In this document: positions 1 to 11,733 of the stretch, one piece after another | Position numbering within the stretch: position 1 is the first letter of the stretch | How the letters are laid out: every line of letters begins with the position of its first letter | Source of the DNA: a virus | Taxonomy: Duplodnaviria; Heunggongvirae; Uroviricota; Caudoviricetes | Direction: 5' to 3' (one strand) | Length of the DNA: 11,733 nucleotides | Virus record (IMG/VR): IMGVR_UViG_2671180643_000016 | Location: 1-11,733 of that record | The notes under the pieces: generated by a model | The model's database searches: none | Told to the model about the DNA's origin: nothing | What the model saw: the letters and a program-made list of their open reading frames with translations, nothing else | Translations under genes and position numbers: made by a program

Positions 1-1257
1 GTGCTTACCGATACAAAATTAAAAAACCTCAAGCCGCAGGACAAACTGTACAAGGTCTCCGATCGTGACGGGCTGTATGTAGCTGTGCTTACGTCAGGCA
101 CGGTCTCGTTTCGCTATGACTACCGTATCAACGGTCGCCGCGAAACACTGGTAATCGGGCAGTATGGGCGTGACGGTATCAGCCTGGCAGAAGCGCGAGA
201 AGAACTGATTGCTGCAAAGAAGCTGCTTAAAGCAGGCCAGTCACCGGCTGCGGCTAAACGTGACGGTATCAAAAAGATTCGTGGTGCCGAGACGTTTGCG
301 GTACATACCGACAGTTATATGAAACACGTCATCCTGGCTGACAGTACCCGCGCAATGAAACAGGCGGTGATCGACCGTGACATACTTCCGGTTCTTGGCA
401 ATAAAATGATGGCTGAAATTACCACATCGATGGTTCGTGATTTGTGTGACCGGATTGTCGAACGCGGTGGCCGGGCAACAGCAGTGCAGGCCAGGGAGAT
501 CATCAGTAGCGTATACCGTCACGCCAATGACCGTGGTCATGGTTTGTTTAATCCTGCGGCTGACATTAAACCTTCGTCTATCGCCATATTTAAACCACGA
601 GAGCGAACACTGACACCAGAAGAAACTGGCCTGTTCTTCCGCACGCTGGATGCCATTGGTGCTATGGGCACTATGAAAATGGCTTTAAAACTGGTGCTTA
701 TCACTATGGTTCGTAAGGGCGAATTCACCAATGCAACGTGGGATGAAATAGATTTTAAAAAATGGACATGGACAATTCCTCCAGACCGCATGAAGGGAAG
801 CCGGGCGCACGTTATTTACCTGCCTAAACAGGCACAGGATATATTGGTCGGGTTGCAGATGTGCGCTGGTGGAAGTGAATATCTGGTTCCTGGTCGTTAC
901 AATTTCTGGAAGCCATTATCTAATGCCGCGCTGAACTCTCTGATCGACAGAACGGTGAAAATAATAAATGAAGATGGTGAGCATATTCAGGACTTCACTG
1001 TACATGATATGCGCCGTACAGCCAGTACGTTGTTGCATGAGGCTGGTTATCCTTCAGACTGGATTGAAAAGGCTCTGGCACATGAGCAGAAAGGTGTGCG
1101 CGCCGTATATAACAAAGCGGAATACGCCAGACAGCGCGCCTACATGTTGCAGCAGTGGGCCGATATGATTGATTCCTGGATTAACGGGGAGCATACGGAT
1201 CTGATTCCGTTCTCCCCGTCGAAGTTTGAGAAGTGGATGGAAGACAGTAATAAATAA
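1..1257 (+). CDS. int: Tyrosine recombinase / phage integrase (P4-type); may be 5'-truncated by the window edge (ORF opens with GTG at position 1)
   Basis: 418-aa ORF with N-terminal arm-binding-like region (LTDTKLKNLKP...), catalytic-domain motifs TMVRKGE, HDMRRTASTLL (H-x-x-R) and a C-terminal Tyr region (VRAVYNKAEY). Stop TAA at 1255-1257. Confidence 0.9.
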   Translation: MLTDTKLKNLKPQDKLYKVSDRDGLYVAVLTSGTVSFRYDYRINGRRETLVIGQYGRDGISLAEAREELIAAKKLLKAGQSPAAAKRDGIKKIRGAETFAVHTDSYMKHVILADSTRAMKQAVIDRDILPVLGNKMMAEITTSMVRDLCDRIVERGGRATAVQAREIISSVYRHANDRGHGLFNPAADIKPSSIAIFKPRERTLTPEETGLFFRTLDAIGAMGTMKMALKLVLITMVRKGEFTNATWDEIDFKKWTWTIPPDRMKGSRAHVIYLPKQAQDILVGLQMCAGGSEYLVPGRYNFWKPLSNAALNSLIDRTVKIINEDGEHIQDFTVHDMRRTASTLLHEAGYPSDWIEKALAHEQKGVRAVYNKAEYARQRAYMLQQWADMIDSWINGEHTDLIPFSPSKFEKWMEDSNK

Positions 1258-1259
1258 TT

Positions 1260-1919
1260 CTATCCTTCTTGGATTTTGATAAGCGTCAGATTTCCGCAGA
1301 ACACTGCCACTGTGTCGATGTACATCTGGTTTGCATATACCAGTGGGTGATGTGCTGGCGTATGACCGAAGATGAACAGATCGGCACCGGTTATCTCCGA
1401 GACAATACCGTCCTGCGCGTCGCTAATCCGCTCACGATTCCATATCACCATTTCTTCTGGTACTGGCTTATTGAATGCGTATTCGTTGTGCGGGTAGTCT
1501 GCGTGGCAGATGACGACCTTCTTATTGCCGGTAACCAGTTCGATAATCATCGGGAGGTTGGTAATCTTTGGCAGAAGGTATTTGAGTTGCACATCCTGCT
1601 CAGAATCAAGTTGGTGCCACCATCCACCGCCGTTTGACATCCAATGTCCGAAACTTCCGCCGTTGACCAGTGCATCCAGCATCATCTGCTCATGGTTGCC
1701 ACGAACAGCTCGGAACCACGGCATAGCAATCAAATCCAGGCATTCGACGTTTTCAGCGCCGCGGTCAACAAGGTCACCAACGGAAATAAGCAAATCGCGC
1801 GCCGGGTCGAATGAAACTTTGTCGAGTTCGTTCATCAGCAGCGTGTAGCACCCATGCAGATCGCCGACGACGAAGATATTGCACCAGTCAGCGCCATTGA
1901 TGCGTTGATATAGGTTCAT
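1260..1919 (-). CDS. Ser/Thr protein phosphatase, lambda PPase-like metallophosphoesterase
   Basis: Metallophosphoesterase motifs GDLHG, GDLVDRG, GNHE and a C-terminal GHTP; the translation aligns along its length with my recollection of lambda phosphatase. Start ATG 1919 overlaps the upstream stop (ATGA); SD-like GGGAG upstream. The ORF-track start at 2039 is an upstream extension. Confidence 0.85.
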
Positions 1920-2566
1920 GCAGCACGCTCCCGCCCCTGGTTGTCTGTTGGTGACAGCGGAGCATTGCTGAATGCATTTGTTAATCTGGCAATATCCAAC
2001 GCGTATCCAGGGTGTAGTTGCACTGCCGGGTCTTCGCACTGATTACCCCAAACATCGAAACCATGAGACGACTGGCGAGCGAACAGTTCAATGCGAGAAA
2101 CATCGCCTAACAATTGCACAAGTTTTTCACGAACGATATCTGGTTTTCTTGAATGCTCAAGCCGCGGTGCGGTAAATGACTGAACGATCCCTGCATTAAT
2201 GCGCGTAGGTAGTTTTCCCTTTACCGCAAACAGGCAATCTTCACTATTGGCGCGAGTCATGTGCCCCATACCCATAACCAGTTTATCTGGTTGTCGACTA
2301 CCACATTTTATCCACGTGAAGCCCTTCATGGTCATCAGACGGAATCCCCAGGCTTCAACAACTTTTAGCGCTTCGAGTGGTTGTGTTGGCACCCACCACA
2401 TGGCCAACAGACAGTTTTCATCGGCCAAATCCCACACAGGAAGGCGGCAGATATCCAGCACACTCATAACCGGATATTTAAAACCGGCACCGCGATTACC
2501 ATCTGCGGCTTTGTCACGATGTGTCCAAGGCGGATCTGCATAGATTAGTGTGTATTTCTTAGTCAT
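1916..2566 (-). CDS. DNA N6-adenine methyltransferase, MT-A70-like (orphan, phage Dam-type)
   Basis: 216-aa ORF with the catalytic DPPW motif near the N-terminus ([10 protein letters not shown]), typical of MT-A70/beta-class amino-methyltransferases. SD-like GGGGTGG upstream of ATG 2566. No adjacent restriction endonuclease candidate. Confidence 0.75.
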
Positions 2567-2825
2567 AAACCACCCCGCAACATCCTATACCGCTATAGTC
2601 TCCACGGCGAAGGCCGTTACCTTTTGTGATACATTGGTCCCTGCGAACCGCGATCCTTGCACGCTCAACATCACCAGAAGCAACATCCATACACTGAAGC
2701 CAAAGGTGAGCGGCAATGCGGAACTGCCCCTTTTTCTCTCTTTCAATCGCGCGTTTTTCGATCTCTATCGCCGCAGGAGTAACGGCGACAATCTTTGACG
2801 GACTGCGCATTGAAACCTTATTCAT
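2559..2825 (-). CDS. Hypothetical protein (88 aa from ATG 2825; the ORF extends to 2858 with a GTG start)
   Basis: Open frame between xis and the methyltransferase in the same orientation, with its stop overlapping the methyltransferase start by 8 nt. No recognisable motifs and a weak RBS. Confidence 0.35.
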   Translation of the reverse strand: MNKVSMRSPSKIVAVTPAAIEIEKRAIEREKKGQFRIAAHLWLQCMDVASGDVERARIAVRRDQCITKGNGLRRGDYSGIGCCGVVYD

Positions 2826-2967
2826 GTGATATTTTTCAAGTCGGCTTAACTTTCTCACTTAATCCAACCCTCTCTGAAAATTAATGCCAGCAGATAAAGC
2901 CATGCTGAAACAGAGGCCAGGAATAAGTACCATCCTGACCATTTGATCCAGTGCCTTAGCAGCGCAC

Positions 2968-3216
2968 TCATGCAGCGTTGCTCACGGGACGATATACACG
3001 TTGCTGAACAGGAGGTTTTTTACCCTGGAACTCTGCCGGGCTTGCTGCCTGACGTTCATCAAGCCAACGCTCAACTTCGTCACGGTTCCATGCGCAGCGT
3101 TTGTCAGTGATATACCAGCGTTTAGGAAATTCCCCTGCGCGCTCCATACGGTCGATAGTGCTCCATGACAGTGGCACCACCGCCAGGAGTTCCTTCTTAC
3201 CTAATGCACCTTTCAT
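2968..3216 (-). CDS. xis: AlpA-family excisionase / DNA-binding regulator
   Basis: 82-aa ORF with an AlpA/Xis-type HTH signature (LSWSTIDRMERAGEFPKRWYITDKRCAWNRDEVERWL). SD GAGAGG upstream of ATG 3216. Position matches lambdoid xis (between recombination genes and the integration end). Confidence 0.75.
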   Translation of the reverse strand: MKGALGKKELLAVVPLSWSTIDRMERAGEFPKRWYITDKRCAWNRDEVERWLDERQAASPAEFQGKKPPVQQRVYRPVSNAA

Positions 3217-3265
3217 AAATACCTCTCTTGGTTGCAGTGCGGCGCGCGTGGCGCCGCGGTGGTGG

Positions 3266-4207
3266 TTACATAGATGTTTCGTTTAATTCTTCCCGACGAA
3301 CGCTGTAAACGTCGGTGGCTTTTGCCAGCAGTTCGTCATCATCTGAAAGTTTTTGTGCAATGTATTTGTAAGCCTTATCCAGTTCGGAGACAGTGCTGTA
3401 ATTCATCGCTGCGCTGGTAAAGGCCATCAGCATTTCTTCTGGATCACGGCTATCCGCTTTACGCGTTTGCTCATCAGGCTTTTTCACTGTTTTAGCGTTG
3501 ATCAGACTATTCATTCCCGCAGCCGTAGTTGTTTGCGGAGTAATGTCTCGCTCAACGCGCGGTGCCGTTTCCTGTAATTCGTCAGGTGTATAGACGCCCA
3601 TGATTACGTCAGGACAGTGCAAGCGAGACCAGCGTTTTGTCGCAAGGTATGCGAGTTGTTGTTTCGGATCGCTGGCCCAAAGTGTGGAGTTTCTTACCTG
3701 TGCCTGAGACAGCATTAACTCGAGCACTCGAGGTTGATCCTCTCCCTTCATGGTTGCCCATACGCGAACACCGCAGCCTTCTTCGTCTTTTATAGTCCAG
3801 CCTGGTGCGATATACGGATTGCCGTTTTTGGATGTTTTCTCAACAAACTTACCGATCACGCGTTCCCACGGCCCGAACCACTCGTAGTTGATGCGATCTT
3901 TTGTTGGCGACATTGTTGAGATAACTGCGTTTACTAATTGGGCTTCATAACCTAGCGTGCCGTTCACAACATGGGTTTTCTGAGCCACGGCAAACGGGTT
4001 CATTCCCCACTGCGCAGCCTGCATTGCCACGGCCATGCAATCAGCTGGTTTCCCGGCGAGGTGCGCCGGTACCGTTACGCGGCTTTGCGCCATTACCTCG
4101 GCGAATTTCATCAGTTGGTTCAAGCCGTCTGGGCTGAAAATAGTTGCAGCAGTGCCAGCGATTGCTGTGTCTACTGGTGCGTTGATGTTTGCGATGTTGT
4201 TGCTCAT
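3266..4207 (-). CDS. bet: Single-strand annealing protein, Red-beta/Bet-like (RecT/Red-beta superfamily)
   Basis: 313-aa ORF. Several segments resemble lambda Bet as I recall it (QWGMNPF vs QYGLNPW; LWASDPKQQL vs PWQSHPKRML; shared ERDITP). Start ATG overlaps the exonuclease stop (ATGA at 4204-4207); SD AGGA upstream. Confidence 0.75.
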   Translation of the reverse strand: MSNNIANINAPVDTAIAGTAATIFSPDGLNQLMKFAEVMAQSRVTVPAHLAGKPADCMAVAMQAAQWGMNPFAVAQKTHVVNGTLGYEAQLVNAVISTMSPTKDRINYEWFGPWERVIGKFVEKTSKNGNPYIAPGWTIKDEEGCGVRVWATMKGEDQPRVLELMLSQAQVRNSTLWASDPKQQLAYLATKRWSRLHCPDVIMGVYTPDELQETAPRVERDITPQTTTAAGMNSLINAKTVKKPDEQTRKADSRDPEEMLMAFTSAAMNYSTVSELDKAYKYIAQKLSDDDELLAKATDVYSVRREELNETSM

Positions 4208-5025
4208 ATGTACATATCCTGTTTACGTGCCCAGTCAGGGCGTTTAATAATTTCCACGCCACCCCATTCATCATTGATGCGGCATTCGTGATAGGTATTC
4301 AGATCCCGGCGGAACAGAGCGTGCCCGGTATCGACATCCTTCGCATCCAGCTCGAACACGCGTACCGGATACCGACCACAATCAATGCTTTCGCTCACGG
4401 CAAGAAAGAAAAAACCATGCGGCTGACCAGTAACCCTCATTGCGCCTTCACGGTACATTGCGTCCTGCACGTGGTAGCGGAATTCCTCGATGTGGCGAGC
4501 AAAACGATCCATATCTGCAACCTTTTTCACGTCGACGATTACGTTGTGCTCGTTCAGCCATTTGTCTGGACGAATTCGGCACAACTCACCCGTCTCTTCA
4601 TCGTTCCAGTACATTGATGCTTCGCAGTAACCAGGTGCTTCCAGCATCCAGCGTGCCGCCGGGTGAGCCATTGCGCTATCACGCATCAGCTCCAGTTTTC
4701 GCCACTGCTCTGCATCAAGTACCGAAATCCCCATATCCGCTACATCACGAATAAATGCCTCTTCGTCAGCTTTACCTTGTTTTGTCCGACGATCGAATTT
4801 CGGTGAAACGATGAAGCGTTTGTCAAACTCTCTAGGTTCCAGAAGCAGACAGTGCAGAGCAGTACCCATATCCAGTGCAGACTTATTCTCTTCGTCTTCC
4901 GGAGCGGCCTTCACCCATTTCAGAAGGGCAGGGTTCTTAGCCACCATATCTAGCTGCGACTTACTCACGCCGTCACCGGCGTGGTAGTCCTCGTTGCTGA
5001 TATCGAAATAAATTCCCGGATTCAT
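4204..5025 (-). CDS. RecE-like exonuclease (PD-(D/E)XK fold), partner of the annealase
   Basis: 273-aa ORF with a GIYFDISNEDYH N-terminal signature, a D-x-K core (VIVDVKKV) followed by FRYHVQDAMYREG and a C-terminal YHEC, consistent with the RecE C-terminal nuclease-domain family. Start overlaps the upstream stop (ATGA at 5022-5025). Confidence 0.75.
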   Translation of the reverse strand: MNPGIYFDISNEDYHAGDGVSKSQLDMVAKNPALLKWVKAAPEDEENKSALDMGTALHCLLLEPREFDKRFIVSPKFDRRTKQGKADEEAFIRDVADMGISVLDAEQWRKLELMRDSAMAHPAARWMLEAPGYCEASMYWNDEETGELCRIRPDKWLNEHNVIVDVKKVADMDRFARHIEEFRYHVQDAMYREGAMRVTGQPHGFFFLAVSESIDCGRYPVRVFELDAKDVDTGHALFRRDLNTYHECRINDEWGGVEIIKRPDWARKQDMYI

Positions 5026-5321
5026 GCCGCGTCCCTCTGCCCATCAATCTGATCAGCCAGATCCCAGCGGGCGATAATTGCCATTGCCTCGCGCCGGTAG
5101 GCATCCATTAGTTCTTCGAACTCAGGGCTGTCTTTAGCGGCCTCCAGTACTTCCTGGCGAACGCCTTTAACTGTTACAACGTCGAAAGTTGATGCCAGTT
5201 GATGAAGCCGGATACTCTCAATCAGTTCAACTTGTCGGTCATATAGCTGTTCTGACAGGCGGTAGTCCTTGTCGAATGCCAGCATGATTTTTTGAAGATT
5301 TTTCTGCTGATTAACGTTCAT
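5022..5321 (-). CDS. Hypothetical acidic helical protein (99 aa from ATG 5321)
   Basis: Strong SD GGGAGGG immediately upstream of ATG 5321; the ORF-track start at 5336 is an upstream extension. Sits directly upstream of the exonuclease in the leftward operon. Function unknown; a Gam/Abc-like nuclease inhibitor is only a positional guess. Confidence 0.5.
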   Translation of the reverse strand: MNVNQQKNLQKIMLAFDKDYRLSEQLYDRQVELIESIRLHQLASTFDVVTVKGVRQEVLEAAKDSPEFEELMDAYRREAMAIIARWDLADQIDGQRDAA

Positions 5322-5323
5322 TA

Positions 5324-5476
5324 TCAGCCCTCCCATATCTCGTTATCGTTGGCCACATCGCGAGCTTCTTTGCTGACGAAAGCCCACTTAATGCCTTCCT
5401 GTAAGGTGCGGAACTTCCAGCTCATGAATCCGCATGCAGTAACGCAGTACCAACCGTTGATGATTTTCCACTGCAT
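5324..5476 (-). CDS. Small protein (50 aa), first gene of the leftward operon; absent from the ORF track because it is under 60 aa
   Basis: Hand translation from ATG 5476: MQWKIINGWYCVTACGFMSWKFRTLQEGIKWAFVSKEARDVANDNEIWEG, stop TGA 5324-5326. SD GAGGT 8 nt upstream. Its stop and the next start are arranged as TGATAATGA. Hydrophobic N-terminal half. Confidence 0.4.
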   Translation of the reverse strand: MQWKIINGWYCVTACGFMSWKFRTLQEGIKWAFVSKEARDVANDNEIWEG

Positions 5477-5494
5477 AATTTGTTACCTCGGTCT

Positions 5495-5573
5495 GTTACC
5501 GTTGAGGTAATGATTATGCGTATTTGGTTTGATGTCAATAGATATGAGTTAAAAAAATTACCCATAAGGTAAT
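5495..5573 (-). promoter_or_regulatory. pL-like leftward promoter with two flanking 17-bp operator palindromes
   Basis: Minus-strand -35 TTGACA (5533-5538) with a -10-like CATAAT/TAATCA 14-16 bp downstream. Flanked by GTTACCGTTGAGGTAAT (5495-5511) and ATTACCCATAAGGTAAT (5557-5573); operator centres 62 bp apart. Confidence 0.55.
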
Positions 5574-5580
5574 CTTGATG

Positions 5581-5608
5581 GCAATAAAAAAGCCGCCATG
5601 AGGCGGCT
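5581..5608 (-). terminator. Rho-independent terminator downstream of the repressor gene
   Basis: On the minus strand: stem AGCCGCC, loop UCAU, stem GGCGGCU, followed by UUUUUUAUU; lies 22 bp downstream of the repressor stop (5630-5632). Confidence 0.6.
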
Positions 5609-5629
5609 TACTTACTGAAAAATATGATT

Positions 5630-6214
5630 TTATTGTTTGTTTTTTTCGTTCTGGTTGATGACAAATTCAATGTAACTTTCGATCTTTGCTTTCTCGGGTT
5701 CGGGTAACAATGCGTAGCGCGAGCGGTCATAGTTGATGGTCGCAGGGTCGTGCGGGTGAATCAGTAATTCATAGCCGTGACGCCCGAATGCGGATGCAAC
5801 ATTCTCCAGGGTGGAAATGGAAACGCTGACCTCATTGTTTAACAGGCGGCTGATTGTTACCTGGGCGACGCCGGATGCGCGGTGAAGTTTTCCCTGCGTT
5901 GAAAGGTCGCGGCTTTCGCTCATCCAGCGTTCCAGGTTGTGAGCCGCCAGCTGACCAATGTCGCTTGGGCCGACAGGCTGAAAACCTTCCTGAGAAAGCG
6001 AGCGATCGATATCAAGCCAGTTACGGGGTTTATTGGCGGCAGCTTCAATTTTTCGCGCAACCTGGTCGCCGATAACCTTCTTGCCAAGAGCCCAGCGGTT
6101 TACCAGATTTGCCTGAGTTCCAAGTTTTTCTGCCATCCGCGTCTGAACACCATTGAATTCACGGTCGATCAAGTCGTTGAGATTTTGCCTGCGGACGTCC
6201 TGGATACTTTTCAT
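5630..6214 (-). CDS. Prophage repressor, XRE-type HTH, with a second HTH-like segment and no S24 peptidase domain
   Basis: 194-aa ORF. N-terminal HTH (QTRMAEKLGTQANLVNRWALGKK) resembles 434/P22-type repressors; C-terminal half has another HTH-like stretch (VAQVTISRLLNNEVSVSISTLENVASAFG) and no Ser-Lys/GDSM autocleavage signature. Divergent from the Cro-like gene across an operator region. Confidence 0.7.
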   Translation of the reverse strand: MKSIQDVRRQNLNDLIDREFNGVQTRMAEKLGTQANLVNRWALGKKVIGDQVARKIEAAANKPRNWLDIDRSLSQEGFQPVGPSDIGQLAAHNLERWMSESRDLSTQGKLHRASGVAQVTISRLLNNEVSVSISTLENVASAFGRHGYELLIHPHDPATINYDRSRYALLPEPEKAKIESYIEFVINQNEKNKQ

Positions 6215-6268
6215 TTTCTGGAAAATCGCCTCATATATGAATCAGTAGATGATTCAATTTAAAGCAAT

Positions 6269-6333
6269 ATTACCCAACAGGTAAATGCACCCCATAGGTA
6301 ACTATCCTTGATTTTTGTTACCTTATGGGTGAA
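6269..6333. promoter_or_regulatory. OR-like tripartite operator region with divergent promoters
   Basis: Three 17-bp sites of the ATTACC-N5-GGTAAT family: ATTACCCAACAGGTAAA (6269-6285), weaker TGCACCCCATAGGTAAC (6286-6302), GTTACCTTATGGGTGAA (6317-6333). Candidate rightward promoter -35 TTGTTA (6315-6320), 17-bp spacer, -10 TATTAT (6338-6343). Confidence 0.55.
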
Positions 6334-6368
6334 TATTTATTATCTGAAATAAATATCAGGCAATAGCT

Positions 6369-6599
6369 ATGAGCGATAACGGACATTTCGATTTCAAAAA
6401 GCACTGGCTTGCACTTACTCCGGATGAGCGTGAAGCCTTCGCACAGGAAGCCGGAACGACGAGTCACTATATCCAGACTCACTTAACAGGTAAGCGCAAA
6501 ATGCCAGGTAAGGTATTGATGAATGGGCTTTTTAAAGCCTGTAAAACAAGACAATGGCTGCGCTCAAAAGCAGAACTGGCATACTTCTTCTACTCATGA
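6369..6599 (+). CDS. Cro-like small DNA-binding regulator (putative)
   Basis: 76-aa ORF divergent from the repressor, directly downstream of the operators, with a possible HTH (REAFAQEAGTTSHYIQTHL). AGG 8 nt upstream of the ATG; followed by a terminator. Confidence 0.55.
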   Translation: MSDNGHFDFKKHWLALTPDEREAFAQEAGTTSHYIQTHLTGKRKMPGKVLMNGLFKACKTRQWLRSKAELAYFFYS

Positions 6600-6620
6600 T
6601 ATCCAGCCACAACCCTCTGT

Positions 6621-6644
6621 AGACCGCCATCCGGCGGTCTTTTC
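6621..6644 (+). terminator. Rho-independent terminator after the Cro-like gene (tR1-like position)
   Basis: Stem AGACCGCC (6621-6628), loop ATCC, stem GGCGGTCT (6633-6640), then TTTT. Confidence 0.6.
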
Positions 6645-6749
6645 ATATCTATTCGCACCTCAAAGGTAATAAAAAACCAAATGTGGTTGATCTTTTTTTT
6701 GTGTCAGCACAAAATGACCGTAATCCCAATACTAATAACAGGGCTTACC

Positions 6750-6950
6750 ATGGAAATCATTACACGTATTGATGCCGCAAAGCGCGGACTTAAACGCTAC
6801 TACACCGGAAAACAATGTAAGCACGGACATGACAGTGAACGCTGGGTTTACAACGGGCACTGTGTTGAGTGCACCATGGAATCAAACCGTCGCATCAGGG
6901 CAGAGATTAAGCAGATCATGATTAATTCCTCCCCACAACACTCAAGCTGA
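6750..6950 (+). CDS. Hypothetical Cys/His-rich small protein (66 aa), possible zinc-binding, in the cII position
   Basis: ATG 6750 with AGGG 8 nt upstream; motif C-K-H-G-H ... H-C-V-E-C suggests a zinc ribbon. The ORF-track start at 6681 lacks an RBS. Confidence 0.45.
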   Translation: MEIITRIDAAKRGLKRYYTGKQCKHGHDSERWVYNGHCVECTMESNRRIRAEIKQIMINSSPQHSS

Positions 6951-6965
6951 TAGCGGAGATTAATC

Positions 6966-7781
6966 ATGAGCAGACATGCAACAGATTGGGCTTGGGAGAC
7001 AGATCCAGGCAGCTCATCATTAAAGCTCATACTGCTCTCGATGGCTGACAGAGCCGATGAATATAACCTCTGCTACCCCAGCATAGAACGCCTCGTTAAA
7101 GACACTTGCCTGAATAAAAAAACCGTGCAGGCCGGGCTTATATCGCTCATGAAAATGGGGCTTATTTCAGATACCGGAGAGAGAAAGGGAGCGACAAAAA
7201 GAGTGCGGGTTTTCTCTCTTAATATAACCAAAAACGGGAACATTAAAGGCAACCTAGATGGGTGTAATGAACCCGAAAACGGTAATGTTCCCGAAAACGG
7301 GAATATACCCAAAAACGGGATGTTGAATGATCCCAAAAACGGGATGTTGAATGATCCCAAAAACGGGATCCAGAACCAGTCATATAACCAGTCATTTAAC
7401 CAAGAGAGGGAGAGCAGGACAAAAACCGGGGATTCTGTGCCTCATGACCCCGGCGCAAACAACGCCGTGATGAATAACTTTGTTCCTCCTGGTGGGCCAG
7501 GGCAATTAGGCAAATTTGTCATGCATGAACAATGGCAGCCATCAGATGACTTTCTTCGGAAAAGCTCATTGCAGGGGATCTACCTGGACAGTCTGCCAAC
7601 GGCACAGGAACTTGCAGAGTTCAGAATTTACTGGATGGCTGAGGGTAAGGCATACCATCAGGCACAGTGGGAGCAGAAGCTGGCAAGGCGGCTGCAGATT
7701 AGCAGACAGAAGCAATCAACATTACCTGATAACAACGTTCCGCACTGGAACAGCCCTGAAGCATGGGAGGATTTCTTGTGA
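6966..7781 (+). CDS. Replication initiation protein (lambda O functional analogue; N-terminal winged-helix-like, C-terminal DnaT-like)
   Basis: 271-aa ORF. N-terminal HTH-like region (LKLILLSMADRADEYNLCYPSIERLVKDTCLNKKTVQAGLISLMKMGLI), repetitive linker encoded by the iterons, C-terminal FRIYWMAEGKAYHQAQWEQKLARRL. Immediately upstream of the P-like gene with overlapping stop/start. Confidence 0.75.
   Translation: MSRHATDWAWETDPGSSSLKLILLSMADRADEYNLCYPSIERLVKDTCLNKKTVQAGLISLMKMGLISDTGERKGATKRVRVFSLNITKNGNIKGNLDGCNEPENGNVPENGNIPKNGMLNDPKNGMLNDPKNGIQNQSYNQSFNQERESRTKTGDSVPHDPGANNAVMNNFVPPGGPGQLGKFVMHEQWQPSDDFLRKSSLQGIYLDSLPTAQELAEFRIYWMAEGKAYHQAQWEQKLARRLQISRQKQSTLPDNNVPHWNSPEAWEDFL
7227..7369. 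repeat. Iteron array inside the replication initiator gene (putative ori)
   Basis: Direct repeats with core CC(C)(A/G)AAAACGG(G/T)A at 7227-7241, 7271-7286, 7289-7304, 7307-7321, 7331-7345, 7355-7369, spaced 18, 18, 24 and 24 bp. Includes an exact 24-bp tandem duplication GATGTTGAATGATCCCAAAAACGG (7319-7342 and 7343-7366). Confidence 0.6.
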
Positions 7782-8563
7782 ACAACGTTTTTACCGCGAT
7801 ACAAAACCGTGACGGAGAAGCCCTTTCTCGCATGTCAGGTTATGATCATCAGTACGTCAACAATGACAATGTGGTGAACATGTCAGCAGAGAGGCTTGTT
7901 GATGCCCTTTTCAAACAGCTGAAACAACTGTTTCCGGCGGCAGTGGTAACCAACCTGAAGACGCCAGAGCAGGAAGTCGCTGCAAAACAGCAGTGGATTG
8001 CTGCGTTTGCCGAAGGGGGGATCCGAACCCGTGAACAGGTTTCTGCTGGTATGCGCCACGCCCGCGCCAGTGAATCTCCGTTCTGGCCGTCGCCAGGGCA
8101 ATTTATCAAGTGGTGCAAAGACAGCAAGATGGTTCTTGGCGTCACCATTGACGATGTGATGGCGGAGTTTCACCGGTACAGCAAGGAAAAAAGTTTATAT
8201 CCTGGTGGTCCCGAAAGATTCCCGTGGCGGCATCCGGTTATGTACTGGGTCGTATGTGATACCCGCCGTGCAATGTATCAGCGCCAGCTTAGCGAGATTG
8301 AGGTTGAGAAACACGCGCGCAGGTTGCTCGATGATTGGGCGAAAAAGGTGGCTTCCGGACAGCAGATACCCGATCCGGTGATCAGCATACAGGCAAAGCC
8401 AGAACCCATGAGTACACCTCCGGACACAGGGAGAGACGTTTACCATCCACCAGGGCGAAGTTTCGGGTGCATGCCTAACGCCGCCACCCTGGGGGGAATA
8501 ACACCTGCGCAGTGGCTGATGGAGGAATACAGGCGAGGAAAGGCAGCAGGATTTATCAAGTAA
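7778..8563 (+). CDS. P: Replication protein P-like (DnaB helicase loader)
   Basis: Clear resemblance to lambda P as I recall it (QQWIAAFAEGGIRTREQVSAGMRHARASESPFWPSPGQFIKWC vs lambda RQWVLAFRENGITTMEQVNAGMRVARRQNRPFLPSPGQFVAWC). Preferred start GTG 7778 with SD GGGAGG 8 nt upstream, overlapping the upstream stop (GTGA); alternative ATG 7763 lacks an SD. Confidence 0.85.
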   Translation: MNNVFTAIQNRDGEALSRMSGYDHQYVNNDNVVNMSAERLVDALFKQLKQLFPAAVVTNLKTPEQEVAAKQQWIAAFAEGGIRTREQVSAGMRHARASESPFWPSPGQFIKWCKDSKMVLGVTIDDVMAEFHRYSKEKSLYPGGPERFPWRHPVMYWVVCDTRRAMYQRQLSEIEVEKHARRLLDDWAKKVASGQQIPDPVISIQAKPEPMSTPPDTGRDVYHPPGRSFGCMPNAATLGGITPAQWLMEEYRRGKAAGFIK

Positions 8564-8599
8564 TACCAGCGCGATAGCGCATTTTTTTACGTCTATATG

Positions 8600-8678
8600 A
8601 TTACCTTATAGGTAATAAAATATTCTAATTTCTATTGATTTTATGTCTTATGTGGTTTTTAATTACCTAAGGGGTAAA
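8600..8678 (+). promoter_or_regulatory. Operator-flanked promoter upstream of the DUF1064-like gene (same architecture as pL)
   Basis: ATTACCTTATAGGTAAT (8600-8616; perfect palindrome) and ATTACCTAAGGGGTAAA (8662-8678) flank -35 TTGATT (8635-8640), 17-bp spacer, -10 TTTAAT (8658-8663). Operator centres are 62 bp apart, as at pL. Confidence 0.55.
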
Positions 8679-8680
8679 TC

Positions 8681-9025
8681 ATGAGAAAACAGATACAGGC
8701 TCTTGGTCGACTCAAAACAGGCCAGATGAACAAAACAGAATCTGCGTATTGCCAGCACCTTGAGCTGCGTAAACGTGCAGGAGAAATCGTCTGGTATCGA
8801 TTTGAGGGTATCAAGTTGCGGTTAGCTGACAACACGTTCTATACGCCCGATTTTGCTGTGATGCTCGCCACCGGCGAGATGGAACTGCACGAAGTGAAAG
8901 GTTTCTGGACCGACGACGCCAGGGTGAAAACCAAAGTCGCCGCAGATCAGTATCCGTTCCGAATCATCGGGGTAACGGTTAAGCCAAAGAAAGCAGGTGG
9001 TGGCTGGAACATCGAAGAGTTCTGA
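8681..9025 (+). CDS. DUF1064-like phage protein, probable PD-(D/E)XK nuclease fold
   Basis: 114-aa ORF with D...E-x-K-like arrangement (TPDFAV ... ELHEVKG). SD AAGGGG upstream of ATG 8681. Family assignment is from memory. Confidence 0.6.
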   Translation: MRKQIQALGRLKTGQMNKTESAYCQHLELRKRAGEIVWYRFEGIKLRLADNTFYTPDFAVMLATGEMELHEVKGFWTDDARVKTKVAADQYPFRIIGVTVKPKKAGGGWNIEEF

Positions 9026-9086
9026 ATCGACGATCTTTTTAGTTATCAATGTAATCAATAAGTTATGTGGATAAGCGAGGGTAAAG

Positions 9087-9719
9087 ATGGAAAGTAATAT
9101 CAAAGGGTTAGTTGCCGCCGGGCATGAGATGGCTTCGGAACTGAAAGCAGAATGTGGTGCCGTTGATATGCGCAGTGTGGCAAAGCTGATCAGCGATTTG
9201 GCAACGCAACTGGAAGTGCAACTGGTGCGTGCTAATGCGCTGGCCGAAGACCACCAGAGAGCGATTGAGTCAATTAAGCAGGCTGATTCGGCTGTTAAGT
9301 TGGCACACGAGAAGTTTTCGGCGCTGGCGGCGGAGAATGCGGGGCTGAAACACGCAATGGCCGTAACTCTTGAGCATGTGTCGGTCACGGATGCAGGGCA
9401 GGCTGGTGTTGCTGCAATGATTATCAACGATGCCCTGCACCACAGCGAAACTCCAGCCACCGATGCTTTCCTGGCTGAAATTCGTGCGGAAGCACGCAAC
9501 GAGGGGATTAACTATACCGCAAGCCGTCTTGCTGCTGCTTTCAATCACGGATTTATCAATAAGTCTTTACGTGAAGTTTTCGACGTTACACGCATGATTC
9601 TGTCAGCAAAAGAAGAGTTAGCTAATGAATCGCATCCGATTGATGGCCTGTCCGGTGAATATGCAGAGAAATCCCTTGAAGAATGGGCGGAACGGCTTCG
9701 CAAAGGAGGCAGCCAGTGA
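9087..9719 (+). CDS. Hypothetical protein (210 aa), Ala/Leu/Glu-rich, predicted helical
   Basis: SD GAGGG 7 nt upstream of ATG 9087; stop TGA overlaps the GTG start of the downstream methyltransferase. No recognisable catalytic motifs. Confidence 0.55.
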   Translation: MESNIKGLVAAGHEMASELKAECGAVDMRSVAKLISDLATQLEVQLVRANALAEDHQRAIESIKQADSAVKLAHEKFSALAAENAGLKHAMAVTLEHVSVTDAGQAGVAAMIINDALHHSETPATDAFLAEIRAEARNEGINYTASRLAAAFNHGFINKSLREVFDVTRMILSAKEELANESHPIDGLSGEYAEKSLEEWAERLRKGGSQ

Positions 9720-10189
9720 CTGGACATGCAGCAATCCTCGACATGTGCTGTGGCAGTCGCATGTTCTGGTTCGATAAGAATGACGACCGGGCGATATTTA
9801 GCGATATCAGAAAGGAAGAGCACACATTGTGTGATGGACGACGCCTGATTATCAGTCCTGATCTGATAGCTGATTTTCGTGCACTACCATTTGCAGACGC
9901 ATCTTTTTCGATGGTTATATTCGACCCTCCGCATCTTGAGCGTGTTGGTGATAACGCCTGGATGGGAAAGAAATATGGACGGCTGAATAAAGATACCTGG
10001 CGTGATGATTTGCGGCAGGGATTTAAAGAAGCCTTTCGTGTGTTGCGTCCATCCGGAGTTCTGATTTTTAAATGGAATGAAACGCAAATACCTGTTCGCC
10101 AGATATTGGTACTGACCGACAGAAAACCTGTTATCGGTCAACGAACAGGAAAAAACGATAAAACCCACTGGATTATTTTTATGAAATAG
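9716..10189 (+). CDS. Small DNA amino-methyltransferase (phage Dam-like, putative N6-adenine)
   Basis: AdoMet-binding-like motif ILDMCCGSRMF followed by the catalytic-type motif FDPPH. Start GTG 9716 with SD AGGAGG 7 nt upstream, overlapping the upstream stop (GTGA). The ORF-track start at 9683 has no RBS. Confidence 0.6.
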   Translation: MTGHAAILDMCCGSRMFWFDKNDDRAIFSDIRKEEHTLCDGRRLIISPDLIADFRALPFADASFSMVIFDPPHLERVGDNAWMGKKYGRLNKDTWRDDLRQGFKEAFRVLRPSGVLIFKWNETQIPVRQILVLTDRKPVIGQRTGKNDKTHWIIFMK

Positions 10190-10335
10190 GCATCCAGTGA
10201 GTAGGTTCGTAAGGTTACAGATACGTATATCTGAATAATTAAATTCAGTTCTGTAAATAAAATTTAATCCTTAACCGGAGGGATTCCTGCACCCTCAGAA
10301 CATCAGGATACCGCCCGAAAGGGCGGTAATGAAAA

Positions 10336-10803
10336 ATGGCTGAATTAACCAAATGGCTACAAAACACGATTACCGGAATTGAAACGGTAGTAGACGATAA
10401 ATCGTTTGTATGTGATGAAATAGTATTCAAAATCGATGTGGTTAAAAACGTACTTACCGCATTTAAAGTCGCGCTGGTATCGCTGGAAGCCGAACCGGTG
10501 ACATGGCGATATCGCTACGTGAGAAAAGGCGTTACGAACTTTCAGGAGAAGCCGTGGGTTGGTGACTGGAAATATGTACCGACAAAAGAGAATTGCAACG
10601 ACAGGCCGAACTATGAAATTCAGGCGTTATTCACGGCCCAGCCTGTGCCACTGACACCCGAAGGATTGATTAAAGCGGTGCGCTTCTATGAACAGGTTAA
10701 GAGTGAAAATCCGCCAGTCGAAACCGGAGCATGGAAAGACGCTGTTGACTGGGTGCTCAAAGAGGCTTGTCAGGCTGTAAACATTGGCATCAAAGGAGAG
10801 TGA
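10336..10803 (+). CDS. Hypothetical phage protein (155 aa) sharing an N-terminal domain with the 10999 gene
   Basis: N-terminus LTKWLQNTITGIE...NVLTAFKVALVSLEA is paralogous to LTKEWLQNTITSIE...NMLTALKIALASLAA in the downstream 244-aa protein. Confidence 0.55.
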   Translation: MAELTKWLQNTITGIETVVDDKSFVCDEIVFKIDVVKNVLTAFKVALVSLEAEPVTWRYRYVRKGVTNFQEKPWVGDWKYVPTKENCNDRPNYEIQALFTAQPVPLTPEGLIKAVRFYEQVKSENPPVETGAWKDAVDWVLKEACQAVNIGIKGE

Positions 10804-10804
10804 G

Positions 10805-10996
10805 ATGAACGGACAAATATCAATTGTTCGACCGGGAGCATGTGACGATCGCGAGATACGAATGATTATTCGTCTGGCGATGGGGAAAACAATAACAGCT
10901 CTCATTACTCCTGAAAATCTCGCATTAGCATTAACAGGAAAGTCAGACTTGCCAGTAGAGCTAAAGCTGCGAAATGTTGAGATTAAGGTGAAATAG
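10805..10996 (+). CDS. Hypothetical small protein (63 aa)
   Basis: ATG 10805 with SD AGGAG 8 nt upstream; positioned 1 nt after the upstream stop and 2 nt before the next start. Confidence 0.4.
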   Translation: MNGQISIVRPGACDDREIRMIIRLAMGKTITALITPENLALALTGKSDLPVELKLRNVEIKVK

Positions 10997-10998
10997 TT

Positions 10999-11733
10999 AT
11001 GAATACTCTTACCAAAGAATGGTTACAGAACACGATTACCAGCATTGAGTCAGCACGGGATGAAATACCGTTCGGACTCGATGAAGATCAAAACAACATG
11101 CTTACCGCATTAAAAATTGCACTGGCATCACTGGCAGCAGTATCGGATGAACGAGCAGCCTATGAATTATTTATGGAGAAGCGTTTCGGGGAATCTGTAG
11201 ATCGCCGTAGGGCAAAAAATGGCGATAGAGAATACATGGCATGGGATATGGCGCTTGGCTGGATTATCTGGTGTCACCGCGCCGCCATGCTTCAGGGTAG
11301 CCAACCTGTAAGCCAAACTTACAACTTGCCAGAATTAATCGAAGGCATGGAAGTTTCCATTGATATAAGCACTTGTGATGCTGATTTAGGTAATCGCTAT
11401 TTCGGCACCGTCACCGAAGCGTTAGAACTTGATACAGCCAAGAATGGTTACATCCTCTTGGTTCAGGACGCAGAGCCAAACTTCGATGTAAATGGCAACT
11501 CTCCGGGAACTCCGGATAGTTGGATAAGCTGTAGTGATCGAATGCCTGAAAAGGGCCAGAACGTGCTTATTTCGGTGAATTTCGATAGCTCTCTGGTTGA
11601 ACCGCTAATATGCTCCGCACGCTATACCGGAAGCACCTTTCGGCGCGGAGATGCAACGATTAAGCCGGGTAATGGTATTGAGCAAGCAACTCACTGGATG
11701 CCGCTACCGGAACCGCCGCAGGAGGTGAAGTGA
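10999..11733 (+). CDS. Phage protein with paralogous N-terminal domain and DUF551-like C-terminal domain
   Basis: C-terminal DSWISCSDRMPEKGQNVLISV ... ATHWMPLPEPP resembles the DUF551 signature as I recall it; N-terminal about 45 aa paralogous to the 10336 gene. Stop TGA 11731-11733. Confidence 0.6.
   Translation: MNTLTKEWLQNTITSIESARDEIPFGLDEDQNNMLTALKIALASLAAVSDERAAYELFMEKRFGESVDRRRAKNGDREYMAWDMALGWIIWCHRAAMLQGSQPVSQTYNLPELIEGMEVSIDISTCDADLGNRYFGTVTEALELDTAKNGYILLVQDAEPNFDVNGNSPGTPDSWISCSDRMPEKGQNVLISVNFDSSLVEPLICSARYTGSTFRRGDATIKPGNGIEQATHWMPLPEPPQEVK

Follow-up and report, generated by a model that had tools for sequence, protein, structure and literature searches.

Two methyltransferase genes in the early region of an E. 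coli prophage

The DNA analyzed here, referred to as the window, is the whole 11,733-nucleotide stretch of the IMG/VR virus record IMGVR_UViG_2671180643_000016 (positions 1 to 11,733). It comes from a temperate Escherichia coli prophage of the lambdoid/epsilon15-like kind, beside guaA, and represents the early region of that prophage, with the functions for control, recombination, and replication. It carries two methyltransferase genes, which are the subject of this work. By megablast, E. coli chromosomes match the window directly after guaB-guaA, and 26 complete genomes cover at least 80% of it. An initial annotation, made from the letters alone, had described an MT-A70-like gene with a DPPW motif in the leftward operon and a small gene with a DPPH motif in the rightward nin-like region, and had called the products unrelated orphan DNA methyltransferases. 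Both genes were found intact where that annotation had placed them, with the following features.

1916-2566, minus strand: MT-A70-family methyltransferase, 216 residues (PF05063, phrog_359, PADLOC PDLC03262)
2525-2536, minus strand: DPPW motif IV of the MT-A70 enzyme, residues 11-14 (computed coordinates)
9716-10189, plus strand: minimal class I S-adenosylmethionine (SAM)-dependent methyltransferase, 157 residues (phrog_954, PADLOC PDLC03288 and PDLC03730, RefSeq)
9734-9757, plus strand: motif I (ILDMCCGS) of the small enzyme, the SAM-binding loop after strand 1, residues 7-14
9923-9934, plus strand: DPPH motif IV of the small enzyme, residues 70-73

The MT-A70 protein matches the full PF05063 profile (positions 1-172 of 172 on residues 5-176; E = 2.2e-22, 80.3 bits against a cut-off of 23.9), phrog_359 'DNA methyltransferase' (E = 2.5e-119), and the PADLOC model PDLC03262 MTase_II (E = 8e-77). 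A 100% identical gene is labelled 'MT-A70 family methyltransferase' in RefSeq. The DPPW lies at the N-terminal end of the domain, in the permuted, beta-like motif order, and aligns with the DPPW of the MTA1 and METTL3 chains. The best solved sequence relative is the ciliate DNA N6-methyladenine enzyme MTA1 (E = 4e-13), with METTL3 next. The gene is translationally coupled on both sides. Its start is overlapped by 8 nucleotides (nt) by the stop of a PerC-like gene, whose open reading frame (ORF) spans 99 residues from GTG 2858 or 84 residues from ATG 2810, and its stop is overlapped by 4 nt (ATGA) by the ATG of a phosphatase gene. The phosphatase is a variable neighbor, present in only a few related loci; elsewhere the place is taken mostly by short or no ORFs or by a DUF1382 gene.

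The GTG start of the small gene has a GGAGG ahead of it and overlaps, as GTGA, the stop of the 'eae-like' ORF upstream (9087-9719), to which the small gene is translationally coupled. RefSeq contains the identical 474-nt frame under the name 'class I SAM-dependent methyltransferase'. The protein matches phrog_954 (E = 7e-87) and the PADLOC models PDLC03288 MTase_II (E = 3e-73) and PDLC03730 'orphan methyltransferase' (oMTase; E = 4e-50). In an alignment of 60 enterobacterial and Firmicute homologs, 31 columns are invariant, and all of them are kept in the window copy; P71, P72, and H73 are invariant, D70 is nearly so, and motif I is conserved as LDxCCGS. The spacing from motif I to DPPH is about 60 residues, and motif I aligns with its counterpart region in the PH0226 methyltransferase. 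Near the two methyltransferase genes, promoter and terminator scans gave nothing above chance.

Both enzymes are solitary and belong to different families

The other genes were mapped from the RefSeq annotation of the best relatives (L001, L002, and L006) together with Pfam, PHROG, and NCBIfam scans. All window ORFs were scanned with Pfam, several with PHROGs as well, and ten proteins with PADLOC. The map is as follows.

1-1257, plus strand: integrase, at the left end of the window
1260-1919, minus strand: Ser/Thr protein phosphatase, NinI/PrpA-like (Pfam Metallophos, phrog_246, NCBIfam PRK11439; RefSeq start 1919)
2559-2858, minus strand: PerC-family small regulator (Pfam PF06069, E = 6e-7; phrog_868 'transcriptional activator')
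2968-3216, minus strand: AlpA-like gene, leftward operon
3266-4207, minus strand: RecT recombinase (Pfam PF03837, E = 2.5e-44)
4204-5025, minus strand: PD-(D/E)XK nuclease, DUF3799 (Pfam PF12684, E = 2.9e-23)
Leftward operon, minus strand: two small ORFs, listed between the cI-like and PD-(D/E)XK genes
5630-6214, minus strand: cI-like repressor, leftward operon
6369-6599, plus strand: cro-like gene, rightward operon
6966-7781, plus strand: DnaT-like O protein, rightward operon
7763-8563, plus strand: lambda P-like gene, rightward operon
8681-9025, plus strand: DUF1064, nuclease-fold, Holliday-junction-resolvase-like (Pfam PF06356, phrog_190)
9087-9719, plus strand: 'eae-like' ORF, function unknown (phrog_614)
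10336-10803, plus strand: ead/Ea22-like gene, rightward operon
From 10999, plus strand: DUF551 gene, rightward operon

The DnaT-like initiator gene contains short tandem coding repeats at about 7240-7400 (…PENGNVPENGNIPKNGMLNDPKNGMLNDPKNGIQ…), which recall origin iterons of the kind that lie within lambda O-type genes.

The MT-A70 gene is flanked by the PerC-like and Ser/Thr phosphatase genes, and the small gene by the 'eae-like' ORF and the ead/Ea22-like gene; none of these encodes a restriction enzyme. Among the ten proteins scanned, PADLOC matched only the two methyltransferases; the eight others, which include the methyltransferase neighbors, the DUF3799 nuclease, and the DUF1064 protein, matched no defense model. 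The only nuclease-fold proteins in the window are the last two, and each was considered as a hidden restriction partner and rejected. The DUF3799 nuclease is a recombination gene paired with RecT, and the DUF1064 gene persists in L001 and L002, which do not have the small methyltransferase gene. No restriction-modification system, that is, no pair of methyltransferase and endonuclease genes, was found in the window, and the Pfam, PHROG, and PADLOC scans thus bear out the earlier observation that no restriction endonuclease stands beside either gene. Both enzymes are solitary (orphan) methyltransferases in the sense that no cognate endonuclease is nearby.

BLASTP of the two methyltransferases against each other gave no similarity (best E = 15). 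The description of the two as unrelated holds at the family level, although both are Rossmann-fold amino-methyltransferases with a DPP(W/H) motif IV. M.EcoGII and M.EcoGI, also orphans borne on E. coli prophages, are non-specific adenine methylases that are silent in the lysogen, and broad anti-restriction protection has been proposed for them. However, these are 349-residue beta-class DPPY enzymes with a central target-recognition domain, unlike both window proteins. Neither window protein has the M.EcoGII-like architecture (about 350 residues, DPPY, central target-recognition domain, C-terminal FxGxG), nor did either give such a Pfam match. We also rejected the MT-A70 gene as an M.EcoGII-like non-specific enzyme, since M.EcoGII is of another family.

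The reading that we favor, with moderate confidence, is that these are two independent accessory methyltransferases that modify phage DNA against restriction. The label 'DNA methyltransferase' is unproven for both proteins, and the DNA substrate, the target base, the motif, and the timing of expression are all inferred. The evidence that weighs against this reading comes from published work on relatives of the MT-A70 enzyme, from the GATC content of the window, and from the structure and conservation of the small enzyme, which are taken up in the next two sections.

The substrate of the MT-A70 enzyme is contested

The 'adenine methylases' of the epsilon15-like phages phiV10, TL-2011b, vB_EcoP_ZX5, and EC.W1-9 are 97-99% identical to the window enzyme over the full 216 residues, and their genes have the same PerC-like upstream neighbor, so that there is essentially no difference. 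By sequence, the window gene belongs to this phiV10-type group of epsilon15-like phages. No activity test of the epsilon15-like 'adenine methylase' group was found in the literature.

Activity has been reported for MT-A70 enzymes of Stx2a prophages, M.EcoPA8orf6770P (phiPA8 gp5) and M.EcoGV, which have an N-terminal DPPW as in the window. The phiPA8-type gene, like the window gene, stands close to the integrase where the leftward operon ends, and a small gene upstream overlaps it. This upstream gene is PNB-2 in the phiPA8 type, whereas it is PerC-like in the window. Gong, Chakraborty and Koudelka found that the phiPA8 enzyme alone has a weak, non-specific activity, that it binds PNB-2, which the upstream gene encodes, in a 1:1 complex, that with PNB-2 it uses RNA more than 13-fold better than DNA, and that the complex prefers 16S ribosomal RNA (rRNA) in 30S subunits (PMC10810198). 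The methyltransferase gene raises spontaneous induction and virulence, and a DPPW-to-APPA variant, in which the change is predicted to block methyltransferase activity, did not complement the virulence defect (PMC10810198). On the other hand, M.EcoGV, highly similar to the phiPA8 enzyme, is described in the same paper as methylating GATC in vivo when over-produced (PMC10810198), and REBASE-based tables give its target as GATC (PMC6602927). The published assignments thus conflict, GATC DNA in vivo versus 16S rRNA in vitro, and the substrate of the MT-A70 enzyme is contested.

These results suggest an alternative in which the window enzyme would be the catalytic subunit of a methyltransferase for 16S rRNA and would serve to tune translation and prophage induction, a role that has been proposed for phiPA8. 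Another adaptor, for example the PerC-like protein, would then take the place of PNB-2. We consider this alternative unlikely. It is favored by the likeness between the window enzyme and that of TL-2011c, with 84% identity over residues 1-187. TL-2011c carries the phiPA8 gene pair, as judged from its upstream ORF, which starts with LKQIAF in agreement with the published PNB-2 cloning primer. An upstream gene overlaps the MT-A70 gene in both systems, by 8 nt in the window and by 4 nt in TL-2011c. However, the two enzymes align no further than residue 187, and their tails, of about 29 residues, are unrelated; the window enzyme does not have the tail of the Shiga toxin-producing E. coli type. It is this C-terminal stretch of 29 residues that the authors suggest may have a role in binding PNB-2 (PMC10810198). 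No PNB-2 gene lies directly upstream in the window, no homolog was found anywhere in it (best tblastn E = 0.16), and the PerC-like protein has no similarity to PNB-2. Furthermore, PerC-family proteins carry a transcriptional-activator annotation, and the rRNA base modified by the phiPA8 enzyme was never identified (PMC10810198).

The constancy of the PerC-like gene also speaks for an adaptor. In IMG/VR, about 85 distinct loci whose MT-A70 enzymes have the window-type tail or a related shorter one carry it upstream, overlapping by 8 nt as in the window, and it stays in the MT-A70 operon in L184 and in phage Tyrion, so that it is present in the operon at every examined locus with the window tail. 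However, these loci are near-identical, and their arrangement therefore indicates linkage only, with no sign of interaction. Co-variation of the tail with the upstream gene was considered as evidence of interaction and rejected; it is real, but the loci within a group are 97-99% identical, and shared descent explains it.

GATC occurs 45 times in the window (1-11733) against 45.7 expected from base composition, and is neither avoided nor enriched. We rate this lack of depletion as uninformative. If GATC is the target of the MT-A70 enzyme, this duplicates host Dam and adds no second motif in E. coli. The earlier suggestion that two motifs broaden protection would then be limited to Dam-less hosts or to replication outpacing Dam.

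The small enzyme is an atypically minimal methyltransferase

Members of the phrog_954/PDLC03730 family, for example those of Salmonella phage vB_SosS_Oslo, Pectobacterium phage ZF40, Gordonia phage Pickett (gp57), and Streptococcus phage DCC1738 (gp32), are proteins of about 150-170 residues with motif I followed by DPPH, like the window enzyme. They are 45-95% identical to it, and their genes lie in the early replication/recombination region, as in the window. The family is large, with more than 7000 clusters at E < 1e-5. Homologs with 45-65% identity occur in temperate phages of Streptococcus, Listeria, Enterococcus, Staphylococcus, Gordonia, Porphyromonas, Vibrio, and Acinetobacter, and a haloarchaeal virus has one with 35% identity. 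No characterized phrog_954 member and no reported substrate were found in the literature, and a search for 'DPPH motif' was empty.

Some enterobacterial homologs (P0009, P0090, and P0113; 248-251 residues) have a C-terminal extension of about 90 residues that the window copy does not have. This extension is conserved (…LELESLLL…HHQRRL.HHINRMWLEKM…), and may represent either a partner fused to the enzyme or read-through into the following gene. PamA of the Staphylococcus aureus prophage mPhi11 is also a very small (141 residues) prophage orphan methyltransferase, with xPPY near residue 65. Compared by description only, its motif is NPPY, it is called Dam-like, and it methylates GATC and alters the expression of host genes.

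No solved relative of the small enzyme was found by sequence, and its structural neighbors are only generic. A first AlphaFold2 (AF2) model, built from 36 sequences that are at least 74% identical, had a predicted local distance difference test (pLDDT) score of 62 and was discarded. With Firmicute homologs added to the alignment, the mean pLDDT rose to 88.5, and the model shows a Rossmann core of seven strands in stripped-down form: a helix is missing between strands 1 and 2, and strand 2 is followed by a beta-hairpin. The small enzyme is, in this model, an atypically minimal Rossmann methyltransferase.

An alternative is that the small enzyme would act on a conserved RNA, a protein, or a small molecule, possibly with a partner, and not on DNA. 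By structure, it may be likened to the Trm112-dependent minimal methyltransferases. No target-recognition or DNA-binding domain is recognizable in the model or by profiles. Its structural neighbors with (D/N)PPx are mostly transfer RNA/rRNA N2-methylguanosine or protein methyltransferases, and Trm11, TrmN, RsmC, and N6AMT1 outrank the DNA enzymes M.BceJIV and M.TaqI among them. In Pfam, the only matches are Methyltransf_11, which is marginal (23.9 bits, with the cut-off at 21.2), and Methyltransf_25. The homologs have almost no insertions or deletions across phyla, and a cross-phylum identity of 45-65% is unusual for an enzyme that would be expected to follow variable DNA motifs. Nevertheless, we regard a non-DNA substrate as doubtful. 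The family is found in phages and prophages, within replication/recombination modules, and there the small gene adjoins DNA methylases or replaces them in the same slot. PADLOC classes the enzyme as a Type II or orphan methyltransferase and PHROGs as a DNA methyltransferase. Furthermore, amino-methyltransferases of nucleic-acid bases typically have a DPPx motif IV.

Gene context favors DNA as the substrate

Homologs of the small gene always lie among early replication/recombination genes, with RecT, SSB, and RusA as neighbors in temperate phages of Streptococcus and Gordonia, although the immediate neighbors are highly diverse across loci. In Gordonia phage Pickett (L088 1430-3480), gp56 encodes a 525-residue C5 cytosine methylase (PF00145), and its last 4 nt are shared with gp57. 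The ORF next to the small gene in L174 resembles a C5 methylase, by sequence motif only. In L194 (9397-10459), the small gene comes after a genuine PNB-2 homolog (54% identity, E = 1e-49).

Divergent PNB-2 homologs (phrog_1680; 42-60% identity) were collected from 13 IMG/VR loci (L261-L273), where they lie at about 2501-2930 in most. A methyltransferase gene comes next in 11 of the 13, as follows.

L262, L268, and L263: C5 and D12 fusion (by Pfam in the first two; by resemblance of a truncated ORF only in L263)
L266: PAPS-reductase and D12 fusion
L264 and L267: PF05869 Dam (by Pfam in L264; via phrog_111 in L267)
L265 and L270: MT-A70 (by Pfam in L265; by sequence similarity in L270)
L261 and L271: phrog_757 DNA methyltransferase
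L269: small class I enzyme

The C5, D12, and Dam-type enzymes are DNA methylases. Since both window families share the slot downstream of PNB-2 with them, the gene context favors DNA as the substrate of both. It also bears on the rRNA-directed alternative, because the genes that come after PNB-2 homologs include those of bona fide DNA methylases from five or more other families. This suggests that PNB-2 may be a general companion or regulator of phage methyltransferase genes and not a dedicated rRNA adaptor.

A wider interpretation of this context is that solitary phage methyltransferases and a small upstream winged-helix or PerC-like companion form two-gene modules. PNB-2 (phrog_1680) would be one such companion, the PerC-like gene of the window would be its counterpart, and the companion would control or target the enzyme. 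The 157-residue enzyme would be partner-dependent or of very low specificity, and the two window enzymes, which are adjacent in some relatives, would cooperate or substitute for each other. Taken as a whole, this interpretation is improbable in our judgment.

Distribution and pairing of the two genes

Both genes are widespread. The MT-A70 gene is present at 95% or higher nucleotide identity in 538 of 5426 complete E. coli genomes, and the small gene in 945 of them, with up to five copies per genome. Pairing of two methyltransferases in one prophage is ordinary, not unusual. In E. coli O111:H- 95NR1, the Stx2 prophage Phi14 has M.EcoVT2Dam together with a copy of M.EcoGV (PMC6602927). Like the window, this lambdoid prophage combines two different orphan methyltransferases, of which one is of the MT-A70 type, but its second enzyme is a Dam homolog, whereas that of the window is a minimal class I enzyme. 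The M.EcoGII paper notes that several different DNA methyltransferases are frequent in phage genomes, in particular those of mycobacteriophages.

Might the two enzymes be a functional pair, as a complex or by sequential action on one substrate? Elsewhere, the genes are directly adjacent in both orders, with overlapping or nearly abutting frames. The MT-A70 gene is followed by the small gene, with a 13-nt overlap, in eight distinct loci (e.g., L113 2501-3576). In L184 (9461-11118), a relative of the window prophage with the same integrase and operon, the order is PerC-like gene, 77-residue ORF, small gene, and MT-A70 gene (ATGA overlap). The split layout of the window also recurs: strain 2015C-4498 and IMG/VR locus L161 both have the prophage architecture of the window, including the two genes. 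However, an MT-A70 homolog lies within 10 kb in only 10 of 80 small-gene loci, and among about 120 distinct MT-A70 loci, those eight alone have the small gene as a direct neighbor. L001 and L002, which are closest to the window, have the MT-A70 gene but not the small gene, and the diversity of the immediate small-gene neighbors also argues against a fixed partner. In the window itself, the two genes are in opposite operons, about 7 kb apart. A functional pair is thus very unlikely.

The window looks, by sequence comparison, like a mosaic, with a junction at the start of the small gene (9716-9719). Strain 2013C-4538 matches window positions 1-9719 in a single 99.8% block and diverges exactly at the small-gene start. 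Different prophages, in O111 and O121 strains, have segments with 99.7% identity to window positions 9600-10340.

Proposed role of the two methyltransferases

Anti-restriction self-methylation of phage DNA is the most probable role of the two enzymes. We propose that both genes are independent, mobile accessory cargo, the MT-A70 gene at the far end of the leftward early operon and the small gene in the rightward nin-like region. Both would be silent in the lysogen, as is commonly reported for prophage methyltransferases. After induction or infection, both would be transcribed with the early operons, and the enzymes would methylate exocyclic amino groups of the replicating phage DNA. The target base is most likely adenine N6, a probable target because of the D-first motif IV, and our best guess for the MT-A70 enzyme is GATC or a relaxed adenine specificity. 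Progeny DNA would thereby resist restriction in the next host.

That one or both genes are inactive passengers, decaying as cryptic-prophage cargo, is hardly credible: prophage methyltransferases usually give no signal in lysogen methylomes and the phiPA8 relative alone is weak and non-specific (PMC10810198), but a missing lysogen signal is expected under repression, both ORFs are full length with the family-invariant residues and both catalytic motifs intact, both genes are nearly identical across hundreds of genomes, and both have kept the translational coupling to their neighbors.

What stands of the initial interpretation is that the two genes encode solitary SAM-dependent methyltransferases of different families; its DNA assignment meets a contested substrate in the MT-A70 enzyme, and carrying two such genes is nothing out of the ordinary. 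RefSeq already has annotations for both genes, and PHROG and PADLOC already have models for the two families. Since orphan methyltransferases are routine cargo of temperate phages, and prophages with two such enzymes have already been published, the finding of the two genes in itself matters little.

What value remains lies elsewhere, in questions that are not peculiar to the window. The MT-A70 group has two conflicting published substrate assignments, and the minimal enzyme of about 150 residues is very widespread, with no activity reported in the literature. The occurrence of PNB-2-like genes with DNA methylases of many families bears on how the claim of a "prophage rRNA methyltransferase" is to be read. 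If companion and methyltransferase genes do form modules of the kind considered above, the published role of PNB-2 as an rRNA adaptor would need re-examination.

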